Assembly (NCBI GenBank): GCA_037045225.1
Contig: JBAOHZ010000008.1
Location: 282 to 64,281 of the forward strand
From: Nitrospira sp.
GTDB taxonomy: Bacteria > Nitrospirota > Nitrospiria > Nitrospirales > Nitrospiraceae
Direction: 5' to 3'
DNA length: 64,000 nucleotides
Shown here: positions 19,530 through 63,252 of the stretch, piece after piece
How positions within the stretch are numbered: position 1 is the stretch's first letter
Layout of the letters: each line of letters begins with the position of its first letter
Program-made: the position numbers and the translations under genes
The notes under the pieces: model-generated
What the model saw: only the letters and a program-made list of their open reading frames with translations
What the model was told of the DNA's origin: nothing
Databases searched by the model: none

Positions 19530-20522
19530 CTATTCACGTTCCGGTGATCGCCCCTTTTCTTTCTCCTGCATGCGGCTCTGTCCGGCTAAGTGACGTACCA
19601 AGTCTACCGCAAGCTGCCGATCATCTCCTCGATCAGAACGCGCCAAGGCTTTCATGACCCCTTCATAGTTTTTCATTATCTCGCGCTGAACATGTGGTGC
19701 GTGGGTCTCTCGTCTGCTACGGTCCACGCGTATGGTTTGTGTCGCGCCCTCCACGAAATGCCGAACCTTCCACCGCTCTTGAGTTGTGCGATGAATACGG
19801 CTCGTAGTGGTGGCGTCGATCCCATGTTCCCGAAGCGCTTCAGCAAATCCTTCTCGCCAACGTTGGAGATCGAGCTTTCTTGGGTTTAGCCGTGTCCCAT
19901 CAAGTCCTGCGGTTTTAACGGTGAGATGTACGTGCGGATGAGACGAAGGATGTGGGTCCGGGTCTGTCTCGAAAGTATGCAGCACCATGGCGTACTGATA
20001 ATTGGCAAACTCACGTTTCGCAAATTCACGGGCGGCGCGTTGAACCGAGATTGGGTCGGTCAGCTTCGGCATGGACAAGATGATATGAAAGGCATCGCGC
20101 ATCTCGGAATTCCCAGGGATTGGAAACCCTCCATGTTGCCATTCGCGCTTGAGATCTCCAACGGCCTCTTTACCCGTGATGATATGTCCGTCTTGATCTT
20201 CAATGTCTAGCTTCCCATCCCGAGAGATATAACTGAGATTATTTGAAATCCCGCGCAGGCCTTTCGTGGCTTTGGCGAGCTTGACCATGACCTGCGGGGC
20301 ACATCGAACCATGTCACGAAGCTTTTGCCGCACGAAGCGCGCCCGCGCCTCTGGAGTGTGTAAGTGTCCACCTGTGCCCGCGTGTGATTGGCCCCCCCGG
20401 CCTGTCCTACCCTCATGTCCTCGTCGCACGGTCGACGCAGACACATTAAAGAGGCGACTACCCCATTCATCTAAGGTGGCATCTGTGCTATTGGCAAATT
20501 GGGGCATCATTGGATGTGCCAT
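19530..20522 (-). CDS. relaxase (MobA/VirD2-type mobilisation nuclease domain)
   Basis: His-rich catalytic motif LHTFETDPDPHPSSHPHVHLTV, overall relaxase/mobilisation-nuclease layout, and translational overlap with the upstream MobC-like gene. Confidence 0.8.
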   Translation of the reverse strand: MAHPMMPQFANSTDATLDEWGSRLFNVSASTVRRGHEGRTGRGGQSHAGTGGHLHTPEARARFVRQKLRDMVRCAPQVMVKLAKATKGLRGISNNLSYISRDGKLDIEDQDGHIITGKEAVGDLKREWQHGGFPIPGNSEMRDAFHIILSMPKLTDPISVQRAAREFAKREFANYQYAMVLHTFETDPDPHPSSHPHVHLTVKTAGLDGTRLNPRKLDLQRWREGFAEALREHGIDATTTSRIHRTTQERWKVRHFVEGATQTIRVDRSRRETHAPHVQREIMKNYEGVMKALARSDRGDDRQLAVDLVRHLAGQSRMQEKEKGRSPERE

Positions 20523-21049
20523 CGCTCCAGGTTGCCTCTCATCACACTCGACACGGTGGTCGTATGAGTTTCAATGCGCCTAGATAATTCGGTGATGAGT
20601 TCGACCCGAAAGGCACTCCTCTCATCCGGAGAGGTATTCAGCGCTTTGGCGAGTTGATTCAGGTTTCTCCCGATTGCCAATAGTTGCAGGTTGGAACGGG
20701 CGAGCACTTCCAATTCTGATTGGCCAAATTGTGGGTGTCCCACGAGTCGAGTCCGAATCAAGGCAATGATCCACTTGGCAACCGTAAACCCTTGCGCCTG
20801 TGCCATCCGTTTGAGAGTACCGTGCTCGGACTCGGTGAGTTTAATCTCTACCCGAACCATGGGCCTTTCAGGTCGATTTCTGACCACGGCTCGAGGGGAT
20901 ATGGATCCGGGGAGACCACCCTGAACGACCTTGGCCAGAACTTGTCGGAGCGCATGACTCGGCTGCGTCTTCTGCCTGGCACACCAGTCTAACCAGGGTT
21001 CTTTGAGCCCTCCTAAGTCGACGCTAATAGTATTCACTCGTTTAGTCAT
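20507..21049 (-). CDS. mobC: MobC-family relaxosome accessory protein
   Basis: C-terminal LLAIGRNLNQLAKALN motif typical of MobC. Start set at MTKRVNT, preceded by GGGGGGGAG. Confidence 0.75.
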   Translation of the reverse strand: MTKRVNTISVDLGGLKEPWLDWCARQKTQPSHALRQVLAKVVQGGLPGSISPRAVVRNRPERPMVRVEIKLTESEHGTLKRMAQAQGFTVAKWIIALIRTRLVGHPQFGQSELEVLARSNLQLLAIGRNLNQLAKALNTSPDERSAFRVELITELSRRIETHTTTVSSVMRGNLERWHIQ

Positions 21050-21318
21050 ACTAGCTCCCCCCCGCCTCACCGGGCCAGGTGACCCTCTATATCCGGAACC
21101 AGCTGTTCGTCCACCGCTTCACCGGCACGCATACCCACGAATCCCTTCTGACGGGCAAACCACTCGGGAGCTGACGCACCCTTCCATTTTTGCAGAGCGG
21201 AGAAAAGACGATTTAAAAGCCCCCCTCCTCCACAGCCATTGCAGGCTCCTCCTTTGAGCTGCCCCTGCGAACGATAATGAAGCCTAGAAACAATGTAATA
21301 CAATACCCGGCGAAAGCC

Positions 21319-21327
21319 ATATCCTGC
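21319..21327 (+). other. candidate oriT nic core ATATCCTG|C
   Basis: A plus-strand 9-mer identical to the RP4 / T-DNA-border nick core (nick after ...ATCCTG). It lies 270 bp upstream of mobC, with a small GGCgaaaGCC hairpin immediately 5' of it. Confidence 0.4.
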
Positions 21328-21636
21328 AACACCATAATTAATACCAACAACCGCCTCTGAAAAATTACGACTCAGCGAGACCAACCTGGAACCCTATGCC
21401 TTTGCGATGTGAGAATTGACTGGTTGTTACAACGTCGGAGGCTTGGCCCACACCCCCGCGGGGCCAGGTGGTGGTTCCTCGACTCTTCCCCCCCGCGCGC
21501 GCGCAGGAGACAAATGAACACAGGGTGTCGCAGCCCCCTAATGGTCGATGTGCGAAAGAGTTTCGCAAAGCCGCTCTCCGAAGCAAAGCTCTATGACGGC
21601 ACAAAATAATCATGTCGGGGAGCAAGCGCGTTCAGG

Positions 21637-29442: not shown

Positions 29443-29602
29443 CCGTGCAGAGGGTCGCCTCGTGCTAGAAGAAGGATAACACCTGGAATGGTTCAAACTG
29501 CTGCGCGGCTTCATTACAAACGATGTTATCAAATGGAGGGATCCCAATGTGCGAGCGAGACGAAGGATTATGGCCATGGCGGCGGTCGGTGATGTAGCTT
29601 CA

Positions 29603-30039
29603 TTATGAATAGAAGGCTCCTGAGAGCCTTTTTCGTGTGGCAGTATCGCCGAGGAACCCCTGGTCCTTGAGATTGGCGAACCAAGTCTCGGCGAAGGAGG
29701 CGAGCTCCTGCTTCAACCGTACATTGACGCGGGTCTTCTTACCATCTTCGTCATACCGGTACACCTCCTGTAGAACACCCATATAATCGTTCTGGAAAGA
29801 TAGCGGCATTGCCATGGAGGCAAGAGGGGATAACGAGAGTTCAAAGACCAGTTCGGGATCGCGCATCAGGTTGCCATTCTGTTCGCGATCGTGGCAGAGA
29901 GACACCAGGCAGTGGCCGTCTGCGGATTTCCCAATGTGTTCGACGAATAGGGCAGAGAGCCGCTCACCGTGAGGCGGACGGCGGTCTCGCTGCCGAGCAG
30001 CTGAGTCAGGACTGTCGCGAAATGGTGATAGGTGTTCAT
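29603..30039 (-). pseudogene. DUF6908-like conjugative-element protein, copy A (frameshifted)
   Basis: ATG at 30039 with AAGGAG upstream gives MNTYHHFATVLTQLLGSETAVRLTVSG. Homology to copy B then continues in another frame (LSALFVEHIGKSADGHCLVSLCHDREQNGNLMRDPELVFEL...). The span is 437 nt, not a multiple of 3, and the shift lies near 29955-29968. Confidence 0.6.
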
Positions 30040-30107
30040 CGTAGTGACTCCTTGAGGGAAGCCCCCGGCGCTGAGCGCCAGAGGCTCCCGATGGGAAGCA
30101 ACGCTGT

Positions 30108-30341
30108 TTACCGTGCTTGCCCACGGACCCAGTCCTTGGCCATTTCTGCCACGGATGCCAGGGCATCCAGATCGTTGAGACCGTAGGAAGCCGAGGTTTT
30201 CCAGTTGCCTTCCACGTCCTTATAGGGACGGGAAAAGGTGACGGAGTAGAAAATGCCTCTTTCTCCGGTATTCTCCCAGACAGCGGCGTTGACGGCGCCG
30301 CACCTGAAAGCAGTCGCTGGTTTTGAGTGTGATGTAGCCAT
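30108..30341 (-). CDS. small conserved protein, copy A (77 aa, unknown function)
   Basis: MATSHSKPATAFRCGAVNAAVWENTGERGIFYSVTFSRPYKDVEGNWKTSASYGLNDLDAL..., paralogous to 32139-32375. A GGGGGA RBS lies 6 nt upstream. Confidence 0.6.
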   Translation of the reverse strand: MATSHSKPATAFRCGAVNAAVWENTGERGIFYSVTFSRPYKDVEGNWKTSASYGLNDLDALASVAEMAKDWVRGQAR

Positions 30342-30659
30342 GTCGTTCCCCCTTTGAAAAATGTTGGTTGGCTCTCTCACAACGCTAGAGAGCCAAGCGG
30401 CATTTGAAAGAGGGGCGAGCCTGGAAGCCGGAGGGCGTACCGGCGCGGGATCCGCAGCGAACAGGACAGCGGCTCGTTGCTGGCGTGGGCGGTGCCTCGC
30501 GCCGGGGAAAAGCCCATAGGCGAGAGGGCGTCATGGTTACACAAAAAGCAAGGAAGTGGTAGGGGAGGAAGTCTTGCCGCCCTGTCAAAGGGATACTGGG
30601 CAGTTATGCCTGTCGGCGCTTTCCTTGTGAGGACCGGGGAAGGGCAAGTGCCTGGAATC
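30342..30659 (-). promoter_or_regulatory. structured non-coding leader, copy A
   Basis: Hairpin TTGGCTCTCT-9nt-AGAGAGCCAA at 30368-30396, 26 nt from the ATG. It is followed by GC-rich blocks shared with copy B (GCCGGAGGGCGTACC, GGCTGGCGTGGGCGGTGC, GAAAAGCCCA, ATGCCTG.CGGCG.TTTCCTT, GGAATC). Confidence 0.5.
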
Positions 30660-30680
30660 TCGTGGGGAAACGGATAGCCA

Positions 30681-30709
30681 TTGACATGTACGGCACTGTG
30701 CCGTACGCT
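30681..30709 (+). promoter_or_regulatory. promoter/operator of the DUF1778-GNAT toxin-antitoxin operon
   Basis: TTGACA (30681-30686), a 17-nt spacer and TACGCT. A perfect 9-nt-arm palindrome GTACGGCAC-T-GTGCCGTAC (30688-30706) spans the spacer. Confidence 0.5.
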
Positions 30710-30735
30710 TGAATCAGAAGCACAAGGAGGACATC

Positions 30736-31038
30736 ATGCCGCCGACCGATCTAGAAACAGAAGAAAAGGCTCCCCGCGTGGAGCGACTTGAAGCGCGTGT
30801 CAGTAAGGCGCAGAAGAATCTGTTTTTGCGAGCTGCGACAGTGCAGGGCCGATCGCTGACGGATTTTTTGATTGCGAGCGTGCAGGAAGCTGCGGAGAGA
30901 GCCTTGCGCGCGCATGATGTGCTGACGCTGAGCGAACGTGACCGGAGAATCTTTGTAGAGACTCTTGTGAAGCCCGCCGCGCCCAGCAAGACGCTTCGTC
31001 AGGCTGCGACACGCTACAAGGAGAGGACGAGGATCTAG
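30736..31038 (+). CDS. DUF1778 (TacA-like) antitoxin
   Basis: RLEARVSKAQKNLFLRAATVQGRSLTDFLIASVQEAAERAL is the RHH DUF1778 pattern. An AAGGAGGA RBS is present. Confidence 0.8.
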   Translation: MPPTDLETEEKAPRVERLEARVSKAQKNLFLRAATVQGRSLTDFLIASVQEAAERALRAHDVLTLSERDRRIFVETLVKPAAPSKTLRQAATRYKERTRI

Positions 31039-31563
31039 TTGCTTGGGAAAAAGAGGGATACCCCCTACCGCGTTGAGGCGCTCGGCAAGCAGCATGACAA
31101 GGAAGGGTTTACCTGCGGCAGCGGGCCGCTGGATCACTACCTTGAGGTACAGGCGGGGCAGGACACGCGAAAGCGCGTGGCCGCGACTTTTGTACTGTGC
31201 GAGGGGGAAAGTAACAGGGTGATTGGGTTCTACACCCTTTCGGCTATCAGCGTGGACATTGGCGCGTGGCCGGAGAGTGTGGCGAAGAAACTCCCTCGGT
31301 ATCCGGTCATCCCGGCCACACTCCTCGGGCGCTTGGCCATCGACAAGCAGCGTCAGGGGCGAGGGGCCGGAGAACATCTTCTCATGGACGCCCTGCATCG
31401 CAGCTGGCGCACTGCACGGGAGGTCGCGTCGGTGGCAGTGGTAGTCGATGCGAAAGACCGTCGGGCCGCTGAGTTTTACACACAGTATGATTTCACGCCG
31501 CTGGTAGACCCGCCGATCAGGCTCTTTTTGCCCATGAGCGTGATCGAAAAATTGTTTTCTTGA
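31039..31563 (+). CDS. GNAT-family acetyltransferase toxin (TacT-like)
   Basis: ...FTCGSGPLDHYL......RVAATFVL......VIGFYTLSA...LGRLAIDKQRQGRGAGEHLL..., directly downstream of the DUF1778 gene. Confidence 0.8.
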   Translation: MLGKKRDTPYRVEALGKQHDKEGFTCGSGPLDHYLEVQAGQDTRKRVAATFVLCEGESNRVIGFYTLSAISVDIGAWPESVAKKLPRYPVIPATLLGRLAIDKQRQGRGAGEHLLMDALHRSWRTAREVASVAVVVDAKDRRAAEFYTQYDFTPLVDPPIRLFLPMSVIEKLFS

Positions 31564-31705
31564 AGAAGGCGAACGCGTAAACCAGCCGTTACTTGTTGTA
31601 TGTAGTGCCTGTTCAAACCTCCGCTAGGGGTGTAGGGGATGTCGCACACACAACCAGTCGAGGACAGCGTGAACGCGCGCCGATGAGAAGGGGAGGAAAG
31701 ACAGC

Positions 31706-32128
31706 TCAGGTGAGCCGCTCCCGAATAACGGTATCGCTGAGGAATCCCTGATCCTTGAGATTTTTAAACCATGTCCGGGCGAAGGATTTCAGATCCTGTT
31801 TCAAGCGCGCATTAACGTGGGTTTTCTTGCCTGAATCGTCATAGCGGTAAACCTCCTGCATCGTTCCCATGTAATCGTTCCGGAAGGAAAGAGGCTCTGC
31901 GGCAAGAGCATCCGGCCATTGGCGCAATTCAAAGACCATATCCGGGTCGCGCATGAGGTCGCCGTTCTGCGCACCATAGTGGCAGATAGAAACGAGGCGA
32001 TGGCCGTCTGTGGATTTGCCGATATCCTCAACGGACAAGGGCATGTAGCCGTTCACGGTAAGACGGATAGCGGTATCGTTGCCGAGCAACTGCGTGAGGA
32101 CTGTTGCGAAGTGTTGATATGTTTTCAT
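31706..32128 (-). CDS. DUF6908-like conjugative-element protein, copy B (intact)
   Basis: 140 aa: MKTYQHFATVLTQLLG...STDGHRLVSICHYGAQNGDLMRDPDMVFEL...FRNDYMGTMQEVYRYDDSGKKTHVNARLKQDL. The family name is from memory and should be verified. Confidence 0.6.
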   Translation of the reverse strand: MKTYQHFATVLTQLLGNDTAIRLTVNGYMPLSVEDIGKSTDGHRLVSICHYGAQNGDLMRDPDMVFELRQWPDALAAEPLSFRNDYMGTMQEVYRYDDSGKKTHVNARLKQDLKSFARTWFKNLKDQGFLSDTVIRERLT

Positions 32129-32138
32129 GATGTTCTCC

Positions 32139-32375
32139 TTATTTGTTTTTCATGATGAAAAGCCTGGCTTGAAAAGCGACATCAGCCAAAGCCTCAAGGT
32201 CGCCGGCATGGAAAGACGTGGTGTGTCTCCAGCTGTCCTCAACGCCTTTGTACGAGCGTGAGAATGTGACGCTGTAAAACATTGCCTCCCGGCTGGCGTT
32301 CTCCCAGACGGCGGCCTGAATGGTTCCCTTGCGGAAAGTCTGAGCGGGTTTCTTGGTGTCTGTTTCTGTAGCCAT
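32139..32375 (-). CDS. small conserved protein, copy B (78 aa)
   Basis: MATETDTKKPAQTFRKGTIQAAVWENASREAMFYSVTFSRSYKGVEDSWRHTTSFHAGDLEAL..., with a GGAGG RBS. Confidence 0.6.
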   Translation of the reverse strand: MATETDTKKPAQTFRKGTIQAAVWENASREAMFYSVTFSRSYKGVEDSWRHTTSFHAGDLEALADVAFQARLFIMKNK

Positions 32376-32682
32376 GTGGTTCCTCCGTTGAAAAAATGTG
32401 ATTGGCTCTCTCGCAAAGCGCCGGAGAGCCAAGGCAACATTTTTAAGGAGGAATAGCCCGGAGCCGGAGGGCGTACCCGAAGCGCGGGAGCGGCGAACAT
32501 GACAGCATTCTTAGGCTGGCGTGGGCGGTGCAGCGCGTAGGGAGAAAAGCCCACAGGCCGGAGGGCGGCGGTGGCTATAGAAAGCGGGGAAGCGGAAATC
32601 TGGCTCGCATGTCAGGGGGGACACGGGGCAGGGATGCCTGACGGCGTTTTCCTTAACGGGAAAGAGGCGGCCGCATGGAATC
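32376..32682 (-). promoter_or_regulatory. structured non-coding leader, copy B
   Basis: Hairpin TTGGCTCTC-12nt-GGAGAGCCAA at 32402-32432, 26 nt from the ATG, with the same conserved blocks as copy A. Confidence 0.5.
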
Positions 32683-32718
32683 AGTTGATGAGTGACGCGC
32701 TACACGCTACAGTGGAAG

Positions 32719-32996
32719 ATGATAGTGAGTTTCAGGCACCGGGGGCTTAAAAGGTTTTTCGAGGAGGAAGATGCCCGGAAGCTGGCACCGGATATGGTGA
32801 TCGGATTAAGGCAATTCTGGCGCGGTTGTACCAAGCGGAAGTGATTAAGGATATGAACATCCATTCCTACAGGCGTCATCCTTTGAAAGGAAGCCGGAAA
32901 GGGGAATGGGGCGTAACGGTGAGGGCGAACTAGCGCATTACCTTCCGGTTCGAGGATGGGTATGCGTTAGATGTGAATTTAGAGGATTACCATTGA
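32719..32996 (+). pseudogene. higB: higB (RelE-fold killer toxin) with a frameshift and an in-frame TAG
   Basis: MIVSFRHRGLKRFFEEEDARKLAPDMV, then a frame change, then RIKAILARLYQAEVIKDMNIHSYRRHPLKGSRKGEWGVTVRAN*RITFRFEDGYALDVNLEDYH. The TAG sits where HigB proteins have the W of NWRI. Confidence 0.7.
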
Positions 32997-33010
32997 AGAA
33001 GGAGAGTGCT

Positions 33011-33319
33011 ATGAAGGCTTTGAAAATGAAAAATCCGCCGCATCCGGGATTTTCGGTGCGCGTGGACTGTCTGGAGCCGCATGGGTTGAGCGTGACCGAA
33101 GGGGCGAAGGTTTTTGGTGTGTCGCGGTCGGCATTGAGCCATCTGGTGAACGAGGGTGCAGACCTGTCCTGGGATATGGCTATTCGTTTGTCGAAAGCGT
33201 TTGGCAGCACGCCGGAGGGATGGATGCGGCTGCAGTTTCAGTTTGATGCGGCGCAGGTGGGAGAACGGGCGAAGAAAATAAAAGTGGAGACTTTTGCTGC
33301 GGATGCGGCTTGTGTTTGA
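33011..33319 (+). CDS. higA: HigA-type XRE-family antitoxin (intact)
   Basis: NPPHPGFSVRVDCLEPHGLSVTEGAKVFGVSRSALSHLVNEGADLSWDMAIRLSKAFGSTPEGWMRLQ. Confidence 0.8.
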   Translation: MKALKMKNPPHPGFSVRVDCLEPHGLSVTEGAKVFGVSRSALSHLVNEGADLSWDMAIRLSKAFGSTPEGWMRLQFQFDAAQVGERAKKIKVETFAADAACV

Positions 33320-33357
33320 GGAGCGGTCATCAATAGCGCCATGTCGCTCCTTGATAA

Positions 33358-33670
33358 ATGTACCGGCCTGGCCTAGCATTTCAAAAATGCGGCGTCATGC
33401 TGCTGGATCTTATACCCGCCACTATGGAGCGGCATGATCTCTTCGATAATCGGGACCAACATCGCCAGACTGATGAAAGCTGTCGATCTCATCAATGCCG
33501 GGCATGGGGCACGGACGGTTCATTTCGGAGACATCGGAGGGGCAGGCCGGAATGGTCAATGCACCTGGCCTTCCGTAGCCCCCCGCTATACGACATGGTG
33601 GGAAGAATTGCCGGTTGTGAAGCTTTTCAAGAAAAAAATGAAGCGGTATCGATTAGCATCCAATTGCTAG
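33358..33670 (+). pseudogene. umuC: umuC (Y-family polymerase) 3'-end remnant, frameshifted
   Basis: FQKCGVMLLDLIPATMERHDLFDNRD in one frame and ARLMKAVDLINAGHGARTVHFG...APRYTTWWEELPVVK in another. Only the C-terminal tail of the protein is present. Confidence 0.5.
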
Positions 33671-33857
33671 GGGTCAAAGTAAGATGATGCTCTATGAGGT
33701 AGTCATTACAGCCTGTGAATTCGCAGTGTCCGTCGGCAACAACAAAAAGGTGAAGACGAATTTTGGGGTCGATCGCTCTCGACGTGACATCATCCACTGG
33801 GGAAGCCGATTTCGAAGAGGTGTTAGCGGTGGTAGCTCCCAAATCGTCCTCCGATTC

Positions 33858-34427
33858 CTAAAGAAGGTTCGCAAAAGCGCGTAGCTTCGCGACAAATTCG
33901 TTTAGTTGCTGTTTTTCCAAACATTCAAGATATTCCTCGACTGACTTGGCAGGATTTTTAAGCCTGTTGCGATGTGTTCGGCAGGCCGCAGAGACAATCC
34001 CCGGGGCAAGATCCACGACGTGCGTCAGGAATTCGTCGGGATGTTGAGCCGCGATGTCGTATTTGCCAAGTTCCTTGGCGGGAAAATCTTTTAAGTTATA
34101 GGTAACGATTACATCCCCTCTTCCTTTGATGGCAGCGGCAAGAACATGATTATCTTTAGAATCGGGAAGATGAAGTGATGGTATCAATTCTTCAAAATTT
34201 TCAACCACGCAATCCCTTACGCTCATGTCCATAAACTCACGGGTTCTTTTAAGGTCTGCGGCCGTCAGGTCGGGCCGATTTTTTAGCAGAGAAGCTGTCC
34301 ATTCATCGTGGATGCGCTGAGACCACTTCGCGCGGAAAAGATCCGTCACCGCAAGCTCCATGAGGAGATCGCGGAGCGGCGCCGGATAGAGAACGCAGGC
34401 ATCGTACAGTGCGGTGAACGTTGCCAA
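33858..34427 (-). CDS. PIN-domain toxin
   Basis: LYDACVLYPAPLRDLLMELA...DSKDNHVLAAAIKGRGDVIVTYNLKDF. It is translationally adjacent to the HTH antitoxin gene. Confidence 0.8.
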   Translation of the reverse strand: MATFTALYDACVLYPAPLRDLLMELAVTDLFRAKWSQRIHDEWTASLLKNRPDLTAADLKRTREFMDMSVRDCVVENFEELIPSLHLPDSKDNHVLAAAIKGRGDVIVTYNLKDFPAKELGKYDIAAQHPDEFLTHVVDLAPGIVSAACRTHRNRLKNPAKSVEEYLECLEKQQLNEFVAKLRAFANLL

Positions 34428-34429
34428 AA

Positions 34430-34897
34430 TTAATAGCCCATATCGAGGTGCTGTGCCTGTTTAACCAGTTCATCGAGAGCTTTTTGCCGGTCTTTGTCGA
34501 TATCCTTCTTGTAGCGCATTAGATCTTCAAACATGACACGGCGATGCGTACCGACTTTCTGATGGGGTATTTTCCCCTCTTCCAGAAGGCGGACCAGAAA
34601 GGGGCGGGAAACATTGAGGACATCTGCTGCCTGCTGTGTCGTCAGCTGGGCATGGACGGGGATTAATGTGACCGCGTTCCCGGCTGCCATCTCGGTAAGC
34701 AGATCCAGCAACAACCGAACGGCATAGGGCGGGAGGGCAAGCTTGTGGGTGGCTTTCCTCTCCTCCCCTATTTGAAAGTTTAGATTTTCAAGATGATCCA
34801 GATAGGGCGCGAGGGTACGGCTGGCTTCGCGCGCGATCGCGGCCTCCTGCGCGGTCGGTACAATTGGATCTCTTGTTCTACTGGTCATGGTGGCCAT
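34430..34897 (-). CDS. excisionase-family HTH antitoxin partner of the PIN toxin
   Basis: LTTQQAADVLNVSRPFLVRLLEEGKIPHQKVGTHRRVMFEDL. Start set at MATMTSRT. Confidence 0.75.
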   Translation of the reverse strand: MATMTSRTRDPIVPTAQEAAIAREASRTLAPYLDHLENLNFQIGEERKATHKLALPPYAVRLLLDLLTEMAAGNAVTLIPVHAQLTTQQAADVLNVSRPFLVRLLEEGKIPHQKVGTHRRVMFEDLMRYKKDIDKDRQKALDELVKQAQHLDMGY

Positions 34898-35373
34898 GGT
34901 GGTTCTCCTGTGTTCTAAGACCAGTCTAGCCCATAAACGAAATAAACGCAACAAACGAAATATTCAAAATATCCTATTTTTGCTTTTGATAAAAGCCAAA
35001 ATAGAGACCATTATAAAACAATGCTTTACATCGTTATTGGCCAAGGCGATGCTCGGTGCGGTCCGGGTAGATTTCTCTGTTCCTGCTTTCAGGATTTACG
35101 CTTGCCTGTGTTCGGGTCTTTTGCTCATTGGATTTTCACCTTCCCGTTGAGCCGGTTGGCTCACCTCCTTCTATTCTCCATCGTTAGCACCGGCGGGCCA
35201 CGTGTCGCCGTGAGTTGATCAGGCCGGGCTGCAAAGGAAGACGGTCGTTATGCTTGGGCAGCGTTGTCCCGCGTGCGCTTGTGGCGGCGCTGGCATGACG
35301 GGGGAGCGGGTTCCATGTTGGACAGTTCTGGTGGCGTAACGGGTTTCCGGGCCCTGTCTTTTAAAAAGCGATC

Positions 35374-36528
35374 TTAAAGGTTGATCTGATAGTTTCTACC
35401 TCGCCCAGCTCCCAAAGAAATTAAAGCCCCTATCTCGACCAACTCCTGCAAATCCCTGGTCGCTGTTGGTTTCGAGGTGCCTGTGATGACGATATATTTT
35501 TTGGGGCTCATCCCACCCTCAAAACCTTTGAGACCTTTCTCCAGCATCCGGCTGATGACGCGGCGCTGTCGATCATTGAGCTGATTCTGAAATCGGGCAA
35601 AAAACTTTGTTTTCTTCAGAGTGAAATCGATCTGCTGCGCGGCTTCCGTCTGTGCATCCAGAATCATCGAGACGAAGTAGTGAATCCATAGGGTAATGTC
35701 GAGTGATGTCTGTGCTGCTTTCAACGCGTCATAGTAAGCATTTTTACCGGTCTCAATAGTCTTTGACAAACTGAGAAGAATGGGGCGTCCCACGCCCTGG
35801 GATAAAGCCTTTTCGGAAAGGGCCCGTCCGATTCTTCCATTTCCGTCCTCAAAGGGGTGAATGGTTTCAAAATATAGATGGGCGATAGCAGACCGCACCG
35901 GAGACTTTCTGATTTCCATGGGGCCCCCCGGCCCAGTGTCATTGAACCACTCGATAAACTGCGTCATGTTCTGAGGCACTCGCGCGGAAGGAGGCGCTTC
36001 AAAATGCACCTTCCAGTTTCCGATCGCTCCCGACACGACTTGCATGGGTTCCTCATGGGTACGCCAGGCGCCGATCTTGTGCTTCGTATTTCCTTTCATG
36101 ATCATGGTGTGCCATGCAAACAGCTTTTCTTCCGTCAGCGTTTCTGAAACACTCTTCCGTACATCGATCATCAGCTCCGCCGCACCCTGCGCTTTTGTGT
36201 CCGTAATGCGTTCCGGGTGTTGATTCAGCCCCAAATTATTCTTAATAGACGACATCACATCACTGCGGCTGAGATATTCACCTTCGATTTCTGAGGTCTT
36301 GACGGCTTCGGCCACCATCATGTCGATAATGGTTTCTGTCTGAGTGTCTTCGGGCAAGGCCTTGAGAATGCCGCTGACATGGCCTTCCTTTTCCGCGAAG
36401 GCAAGCAGTAGATCCTCAATGTTCGTGAGGTGGTATTTAAATCGGGGCCAATTGGGGTGTTGCCAGCTGTAACGCATGAGCCGATTATACCATTTAATCG
36501 GCTCATTTTTGACTATTATTTGAGCCAT
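35374..36528 (-). CDS. fic: Fic-family protein (AMPylase-type)
   Basis: Canonical HPFEDGNGRIGR motif, a Fic_N-like N-terminus and a C-terminal wHTH. Confidence 0.9.
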   Translation of the reverse strand: MAQIIVKNEPIKWYNRLMRYSWQHPNWPRFKYHLTNIEDLLLAFAEKEGHVSGILKALPEDTQTETIIDMMVAEAVKTSEIEGEYLSRSDVMSSIKNNLGLNQHPERITDTKAQGAAELMIDVRKSVSETLTEEKLFAWHTMIMKGNTKHKIGAWRTHEEPMQVVSGAIGNWKVHFEAPPSARVPQNMTQFIEWFNDTGPGGPMEIRKSPVRSAIAHLYFETIHPFEDGNGRIGRALSEKALSQGVGRPILLSLSKTIETGKNAYYDALKAAQTSLDITLWIHYFVSMILDAQTEAAQQIDFTLKKTKFFARFQNQLNDRQRRVISRMLEKGLKGFEGGMSPKKYIVITGTSKPTATRDLQELVEIGALISLGAGRGRNYQINL

Positions 36529-36724
36529 TTATAGAATGTAATAGCCTCTCCAGATGTTAAACCGTTGAATTGTGATCGGGTTGTCGTGGCGGTCATCGGT
36601 GATGTAACCATCCGGCGCTGGTTCATCGTGCGGCCCGCAGAACATGAAACGGCGCAACACCGAACACAATAAATAACAACAGGCCTCTGGCAGCGGAATG
36701 ATAAAGAGGGATGAGTGCGGCGTG

Positions 36725-37231
36725 TTAGGCCGGCCACCCCTGATCCGCAAAACTGAAGGTGCGATCGTCGCCTAGAATAATGTGGTCAAGAATGGTGATG
36801 CCGATGAGATCGCCGGCCTGACGGAGCCGGGCAGTGAGCACACGATCTTCTGAACTGGGTTGCGGATCGCCGGACGGATGATTGTGGGCGCAGATGATAG
36901 CGGCGCTATTGAGCAGGATCGCGGGTTTGAAGACTTCGCGCGGATGGACGATGCTGAGCGTGAGAGAACCAATGGACACGATGTTGACGCCGATGACTGC
37001 ATGTTTGGCGTCCAGACAGGCAACAAGGAACTGTTCACGATCGAGACCCTGATAGAGGGGCCGGAGTATGGTGGCCGCTCCCGCAGAATCGCGGATGACG
37101 ACAGGCGGATCGGGGCGGGCACTTCCCGGCACCAGCTGGAGAGTGTACCGCGGGATAAGCAGCGGGTTCGTCACGTCCGGGCGAGGGACGATCGAGAATG
37201 TGGGAGTCTTCGGAGTGTATCGCTTTGTCAT
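36725..37231 (-). CDS. radC: RadC-like JAB/MPN domain protein
   Basis: HNHPSGDPQPSSED metalloprotease motif, with IGITILDHII at the C-terminus. Confidence 0.9.
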   Translation of the reverse strand: MTKRYTPKTPTFSIVPRPDVTNPLLIPRYTLQLVPGSARPDPPVVIRDSAGAATILRPLYQGLDREQFLVACLDAKHAVIGVNIVSIGSLTLSIVHPREVFKPAILLNSAAIICAHNHPSGDPQPSSEDRVLTARLRQAGDLIGITILDHIILGDDRTFSFADQGWPA

Positions 37232-37480
37232 GCTGGGACCTCTCTTGTGTTGGACTCACTGGCTCTCTCGATGAAACCGGAGAGCCGGTGTAGGACAACG
37301 GGAGGTCGAGGGCCATGCAGGCCGATGAAGCTCAGAGTGGACGGGTCACGAGCAGCGGCAGTGACAGTTTTCTGGCATTGCCGGTGCGCACGGCAGCTGG
37401 AGCGCGGCCAGCCATTGGCCCGGCATGGCAGAGCGAATTTTTCGAGAAGCTCCACCTCTTGAGGTATAGCCAAGCTACCT
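37232..37480 (-). promoter_or_regulatory. structured non-coding leader, copy C (diverged)
   Basis: Hairpin GGCTCTCT-11nt-GGAGAGCC at 37259-37288, 27 nt from the radC ATG. On the minus strand the core GCACCGGCAATGCCAGAAAACTGTCACTGCCGCTGC resembles GCACCGCCCACGCCAGC...GCTGTC...GCTGC in copies A and B. Confidence 0.4.
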
Positions 37481-37648
37481 TGGCTCGCTCTACTATGCGC
37501 ACGCTTAGGATGACTCAGGAACAAGAAGAGACGTTGTGAAAGTCAACCGTGTACGATCGACGGACATGCGAATACTAGCGGAAAGTACACAGCGGAGGGG
37601 CGCGTCATCGAAGATTCAAAGCGAGTGTATATGAAAAAGCCATATGTG

Positions 37649-37669
37649 TATATTTGGCGTCCAAATATA
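37649..37669. promoter_or_regulatory. 21-bp palindrome in the radC / virB2 divergent region (candidate operator)
   Basis: TATATTTGG-CGT-CCAAATATA, with 9-nt perfect arms, lies in an AT-rich stretch 54 nt upstream of virB2. Confidence 0.4.
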
Positions 37670-37722
37670 GATATATGGAATCTCGTTTCGTTCTGTAACC
37701 TGTCACGATTTATGGAGGACAA

Positions 37723-38061
37723 GTGATGAGCACAAGCACGGCTGACGGTAGGGCACAGGACGGAAATCAGGCGCAGGGTGGCCGAGTAGTCATGGTACAG
37801 GCGGCATCGTTCCTATTGGGCCTGGCGGTGATATTGGAGGCCCATCCTGCATGGGCACAGATTACGAAGGTCAATTCGGTGATGACTAACGTGCAAACCG
37901 TACTCGTCAGTGTGGCTGTCACGCTGTTCACCGTGGCCATAATGTGGGCCGGGTTCAAAATGGCCTTTCAACAGGCGCAATGGTCCGAGATTAGCAACCT
38001 GGTGATTGGTGGAATCTTGGTCGGCGGGGCGGCCGGGATTGCGTCCTGGCTCCTCAACTAA
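37723..38061 (+). CDS. virB2: VirB2/TrbC-type pilin
   Basis: Long signal sequence, then two hydrophobic helices (VLVSVAVTLFTVAIMWAGFKM...VIGGILVGGAAGIASWLL). It is the first gene of the T4SS cluster. Confidence 0.8.
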   Translation: MMSTSTADGRAQDGNQAQGGRVVMVQAASFLLGLAVILEAHPAWAQITKVNSVMTNVQTVLVSVAVTLFTVAIMWAGFKMAFQQAQWSEISNLVIGGILVGGAAGIASWLLN

Positions 38062-51221: not shown

Positions 51222-51926
51222 ATGCCTGTCTGGACGTTGCCTCATGTAGAGTTGTCGGACGGTGCGGTGGAAGCCATGAAGTGGCTCGGACTCATTCTGA
51301 TGACGGCGGACCATGTGCAGAAATACGGCATGATGCCGGTCGTGGCGGGGGTTTATGAGGCAGGACGATTGGCCATGCCGCTCTTTGGAATCGTGCTGGC
51401 CTACAACCTTGCTCGAGTTCGGAGCCACGATCCTGCCGTCTACGTCCGAGTACTGACTCGTCTTCTTTTCTGTGGCGTGATCGCATCAGTCCCGTTCATC
51501 GCCTTAGGAGGACTCGGGTTTGGCTGGTGGCCGCTCAACTGCATGGGGACGCTCGCTGTCGCTGTCTGCATCATGTCCGTGATCGAGTCACGTCGGCCGT
51601 TCTGGAAAACCAGAGCGGCGGCGGTGTTTCTTCTGGGTGGCGCCATGGTTGAATTTTGGTGGCCGGGAATCGCGCTCTGTGTAGGCGCATGGTTGTACTG
51701 GAAGCATCCGACTTGGGGGGCGCTCCTATTGTGGCTGGCGGGCACAGCCAGCCTCACGCTGATCAATGGCAATTGGTGGGCCTGCGCGTCGTTTGTGGTC
51801 CTCGCCGGAATGGCCTATGGCGTTACGCTCGAGATTCCGAGAGCATCACGCTTTTTCTATATCTATTATCCCGCACACCTTGCGGTCCTCCTGTTGCTGG
51901 GGTTCAGAATTCAGAACCACTCATGA
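51222..51926 (+). CDS. traX: TraX-family protein (pilin acetylase family)
   Basis: Polytopic membrane protein with MKWLGLILMTADHV near the N-terminus and FFYIYYPAHLAVLLLL near the C-terminus. Confidence 0.7.
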   Translation: MPVWTLPHVELSDGAVEAMKWLGLILMTADHVQKYGMMPVVAGVYEAGRLAMPLFGIVLAYNLARVRSHDPAVYVRVLTRLLFCGVIASVPFIALGGLGFGWWPLNCMGTLAVAVCIMSVIESRRPFWKTRAAAVFLLGGAMVEFWWPGIALCVGAWLYWKHPTWGALLLWLAGTASLTLINGNWWACASFVVLAGMAYGVTLEIPRASRFFYIYYPAHLAVLLLLGFRIQNHS

Positions 51927-52348
51927 AACATTATGGCACGACATCCAGACATCCTATCAATCGACGTTGTAATCGTTGAGCGAAGCGAGCGACATGCTTC
52001 GGCCTCTCGCGTTTCATCGTGCAACTGGGTTCGAACTGGATTCATCGAGTCCAGGATTGGCGGACCCTGCCATGACAATTGTGGCGATTGACTTGGGGCG
52101 CATCCAACTGCGGACTTCCGGACACCAGTTCTGGCACTGCCTCGAGCTTTCAGGTGACCGTCACGCTCGTATTCTCGCACTGGTAGACGGAGAAACCGGT
52201 CTGATATGCGGCAACGACGGACACGTGTGTGAAGGAGTGGCTCGTGCTCGATACAGCGATGCGCGTGAACCATTGAGCACGTCATGATGTGCGATAGCTG
52301 TGAAGGAAGACTGATCCCTTGCCGGTCAAGGACAAGCACAGAGGTCAG

Positions 52349-52738
52349 TCAAGGACGAGGAAGATGAGAAAAGCTACGATACAGCGCATCGACAATCCCC
52401 CAAGCAAATGCGATCGTAGCCAGCAAAAAGCACAGGCCAATGACGAACAGGGGGATAGTGATAAACACGAATTCAAGCAACCTGATCGAGACGTCGTAGA
52501 CGAGGCGAATACCTCTCACGGCGCCGATGCAGATGCGGGCGATCATATAGGACAACCGAGCGACCACGAACACCGCCACGAGCCCGGATCGCACCAGGCT
52601 ATGCCCCGCGCGGATCAGTCCCTGTGTCATCTGCGGCTGCGTACGAACCCAGGTCGAGTGTCGTGGGGCGGCGATGTGTTTCACCACATAATTAGCCTCA
52701 TAGATGTGAATCGTAAACGGGCTGACGGGTCTCTTCAT
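52349..52738 (-). CDS. hypothetical membrane protein
   Basis: Two or three hydrophobic helices. No family was recognised. Confidence 0.3.
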   Translation of the reverse strand: MKRPVSPFTIHIYEANYVVKHIAAPRHSTWVRTQPQMTQGLIRAGHSLVRSGLVAVFVVARLSYMIARICIGAVRGIRLVYDVSIRLLEFVFITIPLFVIGLCFLLATIAFAWGIVDALYRSFSHLPRP

Positions 52739-53110
52739 AAAACCTCCAAAACATATGGCCGTTGCTCTCTCGCCACACGTGGAGAGCGAAGGCCACTATG
52801 ATTGGAGGGTATGCGCCGATGGCCGATGAGTCGAGCGCTCACCGTGACGAGCCCGAGCACGTGCCGGGCTGTGCCGGCACAGCGGCGGCCACGGCGTGGT
52901 GCTCGAACGCGAGGCCATGGCACAGAGACATCAGCCCAGCAGCATACTTGTGTCGTCCTAGGGGTCAGACAATCCAGCAGGCCTCACGTCGTGTGGCGGC
53001 CAATGGTAGAACCGCTCACCGAGCGGGTGCCTCTTGTGGGGCGAGACCGTCGATACAAACCGGCACAGCAGGAGGAAGAAGCAGGGTCAGAAAGGAAAAA
53101 AGGTGAGGAT

Positions 53111-61813: not shown

Positions 61814-63019
61814 CTATCCCTCCTCGCTCAGACCATTGATCCGTCCGGGGCCTTTGCCATGTATTTCATCACGGGGTAAGAGATGCCGCGGGGTGTACCT
61901 CCAGCTAGCAATCAGGGTGGGAACGACAGCGCTCGCAATAACGGCCGCCACTAAGAAGGAGTATTGTTCTTGAGTCACGATGCCATGCGCCAGACCATAG
62001 AGCGACGAGATGGTGCCGAATGTCAAACCCGTGGACATCAACAGCGTGTAGTACCACCGCTCATTTTGGTCCTGTCGAAACAGTCCAATGATCGGATATA
62101 GACCGAAGATTTTGGAGGAGACCTTGCCAGCCAAGAGCGCGAGGAACACCAGCGGAGCAGATAGCAACGCCGGCAGCGAGACGAGAGTACCGGCACGAAT
62201 GAAATAGAAGGGCGTGAGCAGCCCCACGGTGAGTGTGCGCAGCCGACGAATCCAGTGCGTATCCTTGGCCGCACTCCCGGCAAGCACCATGCCCGCAATG
62301 TATGCAGGAAGCACGGCTTCGCTACCCGACCATAAGGCCAATGAGCCCAGCCCAAGCAAAATGAGCATCACCCACTTTGTACGGATGGCGGCGGTTCGGT
62401 GAGCCAGATGACGGGTTAACCATGCGGTAACTGTCGGCAATGACGCCAAGACCAGGGCGCTTCCGAGGACAAAGACGATCGTCTTATAGGTAAATGGAGC
62501 GAAGAGTAGACCGAGGACAATCACCGTCCCCAGATCATTGATGAAACAGGACCCGAGAATCCCTTTGCCATACTCGGTTTTATTTAGACCGGTTTCAAGC
62601 ATCACGGCATACACTACCGCCATGGAGGTCGTCGAAAGGGCCACGCCACAGAGCCAGCTCGCTCGGGAATCCCATCCAAGGACATAGTAGGCAACAGCGG
62701 CACACCCGAGAAACGGTGCCGCGAAACCTACGAAGCCCACCACGTTGACTTCTCGCAGTTTCGACCGCAGTACCTGGGGATCAAGTTCCGCTCCAGCAAG
62801 AAAGGTGAGGACGACGGCACCAAACGCCGCAAGGAACCGTACCCATTCAGCATTTGGCGTGAGGATTTCTGGCAGCCCCCAGCAGCTCAACAGCGCGGCG
62901 GCGGCAACGCCCACACAAATTTCGACCAATGCGACCGATACGCGCAGTTGGAACGCGAGGAGGGAAGAGAGGACAGCGAGAGACAGCCAAAGCGATGCAA
63001 CCGTAAAGATCTGTTCCAT
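61814..63019 (-). CDS. cation:proton antiporter (CPA2 / Kef-type membrane domain)
   Basis: 401 aa with about 12 TM helices and the Na_H_exchanger family pattern. A GGAGGA RBS is present. Confidence 0.8.
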   Translation of the reverse strand: MEQIFTVASLWLSLAVLSSLLAFQLRVSVALVEICVGVAAAALLSCWGLPEILTPNAEWVRFLAAFGAVVLTFLAGAELDPQVLRSKLREVNVVGFVGFAAPFLGCAAVAYYVLGWDSRASWLCGVALSTTSMAVVYAVMLETGLNKTEYGKGILGSCFINDLGTVIVLGLLFAPFTYKTIVFVLGSALVLASLPTVTAWLTRHLAHRTAAIRTKWVMLILLGLGSLALWSGSEAVLPAYIAGMVLAGSAAKDTHWIRRLRTLTVGLLTPFYFIRAGTLVSLPALLSAPLVFLALLAGKVSSKIFGLYPIIGLFRQDQNERWYYTLLMSTGLTFGTISSLYGLAHGIVTQEQYSFLVAAVIASAVVPTLIASWRYTPRHLLPRDEIHGKGPGRINGLSEEG

Positions 63020-63076: not shown

Positions 63077-63116
63077 GTCACAGCAATAGGACAACTCCGC
63101 AGCTACATCAAGATAG

Positions 63117-63168
63117 CCTAGGAGTCATCAGCCTTCGGAAAGGCGGTTGACGGGGGACTCCATCCCCT
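63117..63168 (-). ncRNA. fluoride riboswitch aptamer (crcB motif)
   Basis: Minus strand AGGGGAUGGAGUCCCCCGUCAACCGCCUUUCCGAAGGCUGAUGACUCCUAGG matches the crcB-motif pattern GGnGAUGGnnUnCnCC..AACCGC-hairpin-GCUGAUGAnnCCUA. The pseudoknot pair GGAGU/ACUCC is present. Compare the P. syringae and B. cereus aptamers as I recall them. Confidence 0.85.
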
Positions 63169-63252
63169 GTTGCCTGTACATTACTTCAAGTTAGCGGGAG
63201 AAGGCTAGCCCTGAAAGCCCGCATGACGTGAAAGCCCTCTCGGCCGGTCGCG

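Follow-up and report, generated by a model that had tools for sequence, protein, structure and literature searches.

A diverged two-hairpin leader upstream of radC and its family on a conjugative plasmid-like replicon of Nitrospira

The leader in front of radC

The 64,000-nucleotide stretch of Nitrospira sp. DNA analysed here (contig JBAOHZ010000008.1, hereafter the window) has the gene content of a conjugative plasmid-like replicon. Among its genes is radC (36725..37231, minus strand), which encodes a 168-aa protein with a RadC-like JAB domain (Pfam PF04002, E = 2.8e-42) and is the first gene behind a noncoding leader designated copy C. A preliminary description of the region had listed this leader as the third, diverged copy of an element that also stands in front of two small genes (copies A and B). 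The analysis confirmed that copy C is a true, diverged member of a family of approximately 220-nt two-hairpin leaders. A covariance model of 177 positions and 35 pairs (R1), trained on 46 leaders of the small-gene type and on no radC or ardC leaders, recovered copy C over model positions 1-177 with a score of 65.2 bits (E = 3.7e-15), next to 122 bits for copy A and 111 bits for copy B; the training sequences had been collected by a pattern fixing 21 of the 177 positions, which is a caveat on their independence. The same search, which had been proposed in the preliminary description, added a fourth and more diverged full-length copy, D (33.2 bits), and with filters off nothing beyond A-D exceeded 10.9 bits between 19 and 56 kb of the window. 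All four copies lie on the minus strand.

The apical hairpin of copy C, GGCTCTC at 37261-37267 and GAGAGCC at 37280-37286 on the plus strand with a 12-nt loop, had been described as GGCTCTCT-11nt-GGAGAGCC at 37259-37288; that position was correct to within 2 nt, but the octamers as written are not fully complementary. The stem can be extended to 37257-37290 via a T.G wobble, and the earlier distance of 27 nt to the radC ATG holds for this extended stem, the core stem being 29 nt away. Searching for GGCTCTCT-N(5-20)-GGAGAGCC gave two real matches in the window (copies B and C) and none in 100 window shuffles. The minus-strand core said to be shared with copies A and B, GCACCGGCAATGCCAGAAAACTGTCACTGCCGCTGC, was found at 37387-37352 with the same spacing, GCACCG and GGCTCTC being precisely 101 nt apart in each of the three copies. 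The remaining geometry of copy C (90, 38 and 55 nt) falls within the family values of 89-91 nt from GCCAG to the hairpin, 36-39 nt from CGGC to the hairpin and 53-57 nt from the hairpin start to the ATG. Plain identity between A and C was 55%, compared with 50.2 +/- 1.7% for shuffles, and because it barely exceeds the shuffles, the homology of the two copies is argued from geometry, structure and the covariance model.

The individual structures of copy C agree with those of the family. The hairpin I box of the family (GCA.CG...(C)GCCAG, loop, CUGUC ... CG.UGC) is matched by GCACCGGCAATGCCAG-AAAA-CTGTCACTGCCGCTGC, which folds as the family rod, and the minimum-energy fold of hairpin I on its own was (((.(((((.((.(((....))).)).))))).))). 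Hairpin II reached -37.3 kcal/mol (z = -4.46), and its flanking pairs extend to the start-codon region. At the position of the small hairpin designated P1, each subfamily has a hairpin of this kind in a different register, as read by eye. The 7-bp hairpin AGCCAAG-GTAG-CTTGGCT, which had been counted as part of the element, is present in the sequence; its 5' arm is lost in the closest relatives (L063 and L014), and it probably lies outside the element. A conserved TATACC at 37468-37463, after this hairpin, is a possible -10 candidate.

Family members, architecture and neighbouring genes

A search for GCCAG-N83-87-GGCTCTC-N9-13-GAGAGAGCC in 185,579 species genomes returned 90 stretches, mostly from metagenome-assembled genomes (MAGs) of Nitrospirota. 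Across 96 sources, R1 gave 91 matches, and essentially the whole family resides in Nitrospirota MAGs. A profile of the small protein encoded behind copies A and B detected 98 homologues, named only in Nitrospira or Nitrospirales records, and the same upstream element was present on their contigs. Pattern matches in Mesorhizobium, Rheinheimera and scattered taxa were discarded as chance, with no matching open reading frame (ORF) and with rejection by both the profile hidden Markov model and the covariance model. Those in Mesorhizobium (L015, L021, L031, L034 and others) correspond to one conserved locus in many species, and those in Rheinheimera (L030, L054, L058, L071) to one locus upstream of a pirin-like gene, also in many species; each is a chance match multiplied by relatedness. 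A Fimbriimonadales MAG (L016) and a Nitrospirales MAG (L079) yielded the same scores for three copies (140.5, 55.0 and 45.2 bits), which points either to one mobile element in bins of two phyla or to a binning artefact.

Three subfamilies share one architecture, namely S1 (including A and B), S2 (the majority) and S3 (the radC/ardC type, including C), with spacings conserved within 1-2 nt family-wide, though the subfamilies are only approximately 55% identical. The outer helix of hairpin I covaries (GAGG/CCUC, CGAG/CUCG and CCGGCGCG/CGCGCCGG; at pair 16-124, AU occurs 32 times, CG 25 times and GC 19 times) and encloses the rod GCA.CG..C.CGCCAG - variable loop - CUGUC..CG.UGC, whose internal loops are conserved in sequence. 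Most members have a short hairpin between hairpins I and II. The basal helix of hairpin II is formed by the Shine-Dalgarno sequence (SD), always as the 3' strand, and an anti-SD. The two covary, GGAGG occurring with CCUCC and GGGGG with CCCCC (pair 201-292, UA 60 and CG 18), and the helix contains 26 U.G wobbles with G as the SD base. The middle helix is GAAAUG/CAUUUC in S2, AAAAUG/CAUUUU in S1, GUUGUCC/GGACAAC in S3 and CAUAGUGGCC/GGCCAUAUG in copy D. At the tip, GGCUCUC/GAGAGCC is formed by pairs identical in 84-86 of 86-88 rows and closes a loop of 9-13 nt of free sequence. In copy D, the apical hairpin is GCUCUC/GAGAGC (52787-52764), and the anti-SD CCUCCAA pairs with UUGGAGG. Folded on its own, hairpin II was alike in all four window copies (-31 to -37 kcal/mol, z -2.9 to -5.0), and the start-codon region was also paired in C and D.

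The paired structure was evaluated in two alignments. When aligned with MAFFT, 87.5% of the cells were paired, compared with 44-51% when the partners were slid. The model-fitted alignment, which is biased toward the structure of the model itself, contained double changes in 31 of the 35 pairs, and its covariation score was 0.329 versus 0.05-0.09 for slid partners, a value reached by none of 500 shuffles. Taken over both evaluations, 87% of the cells pair, compared with 38-56% for slid partners. The function of the element as a cis signal, which the preliminary description had preferred to a by-product of the A/B duplication, is supported by family homology, this covarying structure, the sequestration of the SD and the gene associations. 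The leaders of A and B are 74% identical and the coding sequences (CDS) behind them 60.5%, so conservation is stronger in the element than in the gene that follows. Nor is it missing in front of radC in relatives, ten of which carry it there (Table 1).

In nearly every family match the ATG follows at a constant distance, whichever gene it belongs to, and the element precedes at least six unrelated gene families (Table 1). Further copies were located in L028 (5025-5218 and 7822-8000, before a DUF6908 gene and the gene for a 94-aa GNPF protein) and in L005 (2197-2383 and 8127-8307); within the L005/L028 set, an element copy also precedes the gene for a RadC of a second subtype (166 aa, LPRFRVSLV). 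Copies A and B head a tandemly duplicated pair consisting of a small gene and a DUF6908 gene, and the small proteins of 77 and 78 aa are paralogues with 49% identity. The AlphaFold2 model of the small protein has a beta4-alpha topology (four strands, one helix) with a pLDDT of 91, and it had no significant structural relative (best Foldseek E-value 0.48) and no sequence match in the PDB. A role as a PC4/Whirly-type single-stranded DNA (ssDNA) binder was considered and set aside in view of these two negative searches. An upstream ORF for a leader peptide (30588..30385), which ends in the loop of copy A, was also discarded, as it is not kept in copy B and the family alignment contains many non-triplet indels. 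The CS-6 sequence (TAGCGT) of ssoA origins in the loop of copy A was rejected since this loop is not conserved. Copy D precedes a 129-aa membrane-like ORF (52738..52349), which is followed by a 142-aa ORF without a Pfam match (52339..51911) at the far end of the type IV secretion system (T4SS) region, on the same strand as copies A-C.

Table 1. Leader copies, their parts and neighbouring genes in the window, and the genes behind the element in the family (L numbers label sequences other than the window)
Feature	Positions	Strand	Remarks
Copy C, whole leader before radC	37232..37453	-	model match 37229-37406; 5' limit approximate
Copy C hairpin I, core GCACCGGCAAUGCCAG-AAAA-CUGUCACUGCCGCUGC	37352..37387	-	rod-like stem-loop, conserved internal loops
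Copy C P1 hairpin GGCCA-AUGGC-UGGCC	37406..37420	-	just upstream of the model match; outside the covariance model
Copy C hairpin II	37237..37307	-	anti-SD GACCUC:GAGGUC of the SD; middle GUUG:CAAC; closed by the apical hairpin
Copy C apical hairpin GGCUCUC/GAGAGCC	37261..37286	-	stem invariant in the family, loop variable
7-bp hairpin AGCCAAG-GUAG-CUUGGCU	37468..37485	-	read from the sequence; 5' of the conserved element
Copy A leader	30339..30565	-	before the 77-aa gene 30341..30108; apical hairpin 30394-30370; model match 30339-30514
Copy B leader	32373..32600	-	before the 78-aa gene 32375..32139; apical hairpin 32430-32404; model match 32373-32550
Copy D leader, more diverged	52736..52908	-	E = 4e-7 over the window; fold z = -4.87
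Small-protein/DUF6908 pair, first	30108-30341 + 29603-30166	-	one of two tandem pairs
Small-protein/DUF6908 pair, second	32139-32375 + 31706-32128	-	one of two tandem pairs
MobA/VirD2 relaxase and NikA/MobC accessory gene	19530-21384	-	
RepA and ParBA		-	integrase also present
virB-type T4SS	starts 37723		divergent from copies A-C; coupling protein and TraX also present
HTH_3 protein	32906-33319	+	toxin-antitoxin-/effector-like, between copies
PIN_3 + HTH_17 pair	33858-34954	-	toxin-antitoxin-/effector-like, between copies
DUF4172-Fic	35374-36528	-	toxin-antitoxin-/effector-like, between copies
Gene behind element: 77-79 aa protein			majority of family members
Gene behind element: RadC, two subtypes			window copy C, L005, L014, L016, L033, L052, L056, L063, L079, L093, L095
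Gene behind element: ArdC (ArdcN + zincin peptidase)			L026, L033, L052, L057, L059, L085, L093
Gene behind element: DUF6908, directly behind			L028
Gene behind element: 94-aa protein with GNPF motif			L028
Gene behind element: 129-aa ORF			window copy D

Copies A-C belong to a run of minus-strand genes with toxin-antitoxin-like pairs interspersed, and copy D is situated past the T4SS genes. A related plasmid (L001) shares this order of backbone genes. In the relatives, a divergent HigBA, BrnTA or TacA module is usually found just upstream of the element. On a 762-kb contig, the element and the small gene stand beside HigBA-type modules with no transfer genes within 10 kb, and intact copies of this kind fit a function in ordinary double-stranded, vegetative DNA. 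Two matches to known structured RNAs were encountered elsewhere. A fluoride riboswitch (crcB motif; 54.4 bits, gathering score 34) is located at 63112-63176 of the window (minus strand), upstream of a 401-aa ORF (63019..61814), and a sub-threshold match to the Vibrio antisense RNA family V_AS7 (78 bits versus a gathering score of 90, E = 1.7e-13) lies in L047 (5902-6070, plus strand), approximately 2 kb from the element.

RNA leader, transferred strand or operator

The best explanation, to which we give roughly an even chance, is a shared mRNA leader that holds the ribosome-binding site closed until a common factor opens or locks it, and that coordinates the establishment genes behind it. On Nitrospirota conjugative plasmids and integrated elements, the leader would be co-transcribed with the gene that opens an establishment operon, and its RNA would fold into the rod of hairpin I, the short hairpin and hairpin II. 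The basal helix of the last of these would occlude the SD through the anti-SD, and in some copies the start-codon region too, leaving the mRNA closed to ribosomes by default. One trans factor, either a protein or a processing enzyme, may recognise the invariant stem and hairpin I and open all the leaders or keep them shut; a common factor is suggested because the same invariant stem and hairpin I precede unrelated genes. The outcome would be coordinated and probably transient expression of the establishment genes. RNA would thus be the active form, and regulation would be exerted at translation. The mRNA side is favoured by the SD forming the 3' strand of the basal helix, by the covariation of SD and anti-SD, by the U.G wobbles at the G of the SD, by the fixed distance to the ATG and by copies in non-conjugative contexts.

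The leaders are present in public activated-sludge metatranscriptome assemblies (at least 9 runs). RNA contigs over copy A are continuous with the CDS and reach 30559-30567; coverage of copy C was seen in at least 7 runs, more than for the radC CDS. RNA libraries therefore contain the leader region, and no transcription start site is asserted. Start sites had been considered at the contig ends (30559-30567 and 37453) and were given up: the ends were consistent in 8 runs and blurred by four more, and the contigs are unstranded. The end at 37453 was found in two RNA contigs and was not reproduced in four other runs, in some of which the contigs extend further. Coverage of the leader without the CDS was likewise dropped as evidence of attenuation, since some runs cover the radC CDS. 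RNA contigs over virB2 begin at 37632-37661 in several runs, within an AT-rich stretch, which suggests that the promoter of the T4SS operon is located in this stretch (37632-37700, plus strand) and not in the element.

Several observations count against a leader acting as mRNA. In all but one of 78 members (77 of 78), the fold of the complementary strand is more stable than that of the sense strand; the difference amounts to 14 kcal/mol under RNA parameters and 7 kcal/mol under DNA parameters, and after dinucleotide-matched shuffling the z score of the complementary strand is -4.5 versus -3.6 for the sense strand. Among the cells of the consensus pairs, A.C and C.A oppositions (106) outnumber G.U (62), which is unusual for a selected RNA. 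The metatranscriptome contigs are unstranded and of low depth, may contain DNA and have no clear 5' end, and neither a trigger, nor an alternative 'open' fold, nor a trans factor was found. The asymmetry between the strands is partly compositional because the sense strand is rich in C (35.5%, compared with 25.4% G), and pyrimidine-pyrimidine mismatches are as common as C.A. Counting G.U against A.C to identify the folding strand was abandoned, the result being mixed and confounded by this C-rich composition.

A clearly less probable but serious possibility is that the hairpins belong to the transferred single strand, where they would act as a single-strand promoter and/or priming signal like Frpo/ssi of F and ColIb-P9 or like ssp2, allowing the establishment genes to be transcribed before the complementary strand is made. 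The pairing of the SD would then be incidental or would add another layer of control, and the two mechanisms are compatible. All four copies lie on one strand and point to repA-parAB and the relaxase operon, and the order relaxase(-), repA-parBA(-), copies A-C(-) fits a leading-region position, as judged from gene order, with copy D placed apart from them past the T4SS genes. The plus strand would be the transferred one, and the template of all four element-bearing operons, if the relaxase operon enters last; it is taken as transferred because this is so in other MOB systems. The genes served encode ArdC, RadC and small proteins that putatively bind DNA, a cargo typical of leading regions (PMC11541004), and ssDNA promoters unrelated in sequence are known (PMC13478746). 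It is also the plus strand that folds better, and several C.A oppositions of the sense strand turn into G.T wobbles in it, so that the internal loops are closed; with DNA parameters it reaches -44 to -53 kcal/mol, as two hairpins and not one. In addition, ssDNA and RNA motifs are not reliably separable in silico (Weinberg et al., PMC5737381).

Several points weigh against the transferred-strand promoter. Hairpin II ends exactly at the SD, so that RNA initiated downstream of this hairpin would be left with no ribosome-binding site, and the SD/anti-SD covariation has no rationale in DNA. Intact copies are also found distant from transfer genes. A promoter scan of 29500-38000 revealed no promoter-like sites at elements A-C, and combined with manual reading it identified no conserved sigma-70 boxes in either arm of either hairpin, on both strands and in both template arrangements, across the three subfamilies. 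On manual reading, the hexamers at the required -35 and -10 places differ between subfamilies and are without A2/T6. A single long Frpo-like hairpin was rejected as well, since the whole region folds as multi-branched DNA with a z of only about -2.5. The assignment of the transferred strand rests on gene order, as the origin of transfer (oriT) and nick site were sought in the window and none was identified, and the comparison with PLSDB described below, which included F-like plasmids, revealed no similarity.

An antisense RNA in the style of FinP/traJ is an unlikely source of the structure. In this case the conserved stems would belong to a cis-antisense transcript, the variable loops would give copy specificity, and pairing would block the ribosome-binding site. 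The more stable folding of the antisense strand, the conserved stems with loops that vary in sequence and length (9-13 nt), the inclusion of the SD in the target and the strandless RNA contigs are all in line with it. At A, B and C, however, the scan detected no promoter- or terminator-like signal on the plus strand, no U-run follows either antisense hairpin in their sequences, and approximately 220 nt with conserved internal loops go far beyond the needs of a kissing loop.

Marginally less probable again are double-stranded operators for a plasmid repressor that closes the establishment genes as it accumulates, with zygotic induction as for Reg576 of p576. The same invariant inverted repeat is placed between the presumed promoter and the SD in several establishment operons, and shared operators before ardC and its neighbours are a precedent (PMC6294495). 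Several features speak against such operators. With a spacer that ranges from 9 to 13 nt, the half-sites would be turned relative to each other by over 100 degrees, and the helices next to the invariant stem show covariation in place of sequence conservation. The two arms of hairpin I make up an imperfect palindrome in which even the asymmetric positions are conserved, and the pairing of the SD is left unexplained.

A combination of two levels would be a long shot: hairpin I may serve as a sigma-54-like promoter only while the incoming strand is single-stranded, and hairpin II may gate translation of the mRNA. At 30479-30495, 32515-32531 and 37372-37387, the bases that are invariant in hairpin I give CTGGCG(T/A)..-N-..GGTGC when read on the plus strand, and CTGGCG-N5-GGTGC resembles the -24/-12 box of sigma-54 (GG-N10-GC), with the -12 GC beside the conserved bubble. 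Such a box would direct RNA polymerase toward the gene in the folded strand and away from it in the duplex. There are, however, 21 occurrences of the bare core TGGC-N8-TGC in the window, and the box departs from the sigma-54 consensus at three informative positions (-22, -15 and -11); it was therefore not accepted as an established feature and may be a coincidence. If the combination were true, it would amount to a novel class of ssDNA promoter that has no relation to Frpo and occurs in a non-model phylum. Least probable of all, and disfavoured, is a promoter/5' UTR segment without dedicated function that was copied along with the genes by duplication and recombination, its hairpins being incidental; A and B do head a tandemly duplicated gene pair, but at least six unrelated downstream families, stronger conservation than that of the CDS, compensatory changes in nearly all pairs and nucleotide-exact spacing across subfamilies of such low identity speak against it.

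Known systems and significance

Frpo, on which Masai and Arai reportedly carried out single-strand promoter work in 1997, resembles the Nitrospirota element in that structured elements stand before the first establishment genes in one orientation and in that the inferred transferred strand is the better folder here. The Frpo/ssi/ssp elements of F-like and IncI plasmids are repeated, structured, GC-rich noncoding elements of a few hundred bases. They precede the first genes of operons in the leading region (ssb, psiB, ardA/ardB), share one orientation and have the transferred strand as the template of these genes, and their defining feature is the presence of -35/-10 boxes within the stem (PMC11541004; PMC13478746). 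In contrast, the element described here has no -35, -10 or UP boxes in its stems, consists of two separate hairpins instead of one long one, buries the SD in a covarying pairing of the 3' hairpin and belongs to the phylum Nitrospirota. A distant blastn search of 36700-37760 against 72,556 PLSDB plasmids returned only a match of the radC coding region in Planococcus, with no similarity to the element.

The closest analogue by gene association is the radC RNA motif (RF01754), a candidate cis-regulatory structured element in the 5' UTRs of radC genes (Weinberg et al. 2010, PMC2864571). A cmscan with Rfam 15 revealed no family, including RF01754, at gathering score on A, B or C; RF01754 also gave no match at E <= 10 over 29500-38000, nor at E <= 5 on the S2/S3 relatives L047, L052 and L093. 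At permissive thresholds, the only Rfam matches were sub-threshold miRNA-hairpin look-alikes of hairpin II. The RF01754 motif precedes not only radC but also other DNA-related genes of mobile elements, namely those for anti-restriction proteins, integrases and methyltransferases, and in this it is similar to the element described here. It is listed as proteobacterial, whereas the present element belongs to Nitrospirota.

Two further types of system share single traits with the element. FinP/traJ and SD-sequestering leaders also place a stable stem-loop over the ribosome-binding site of a plasmid gene and have conserved stems with variable loops; the Nitrospirota element differs from them in that no antisense promoter or terminator was found, in its much greater length and in being common to several unrelated genes instead of one regulator gene. 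The Reg576 sites of p576 are short direct heptamers bound as double-stranded DNA (PMC6294495). As in the present case, one cis signal is placed before several establishment genes, including ardC, and transient expression after transfer is expected; the element described here, in contrast, has long covarying helices and a variable spacing of half-sites. In the comparison with Rfam 15 and PLSDB, no described family matched the two-hairpin leader, which belongs with the structured cis elements that stand before establishment genes.

A family of approximately 90 members, rich in covariation, provides a handle on the switching of anti-restriction and other establishment genes at the time of entry in conjugative elements outside Enterobacteria and Firmicutes. 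The pairing of a structured leader with DNA-handling genes of mobile elements, as in the radC motif, recurs here in an unrelated sequence family and in another phylum. The element also constitutes a test case for whether structures of this kind in leading regions work at the level of RNA, of transferred-strand DNA or of both, given that the SD-burying hairpin points to RNA and the better-folding complement to DNA. Finally, the element brings ArdC, RadC, DUF6908 and the uncharacterised 77-aa protein together in a presumptive regulon of Nitrospira, a nitrifier of key importance in wastewater plants.

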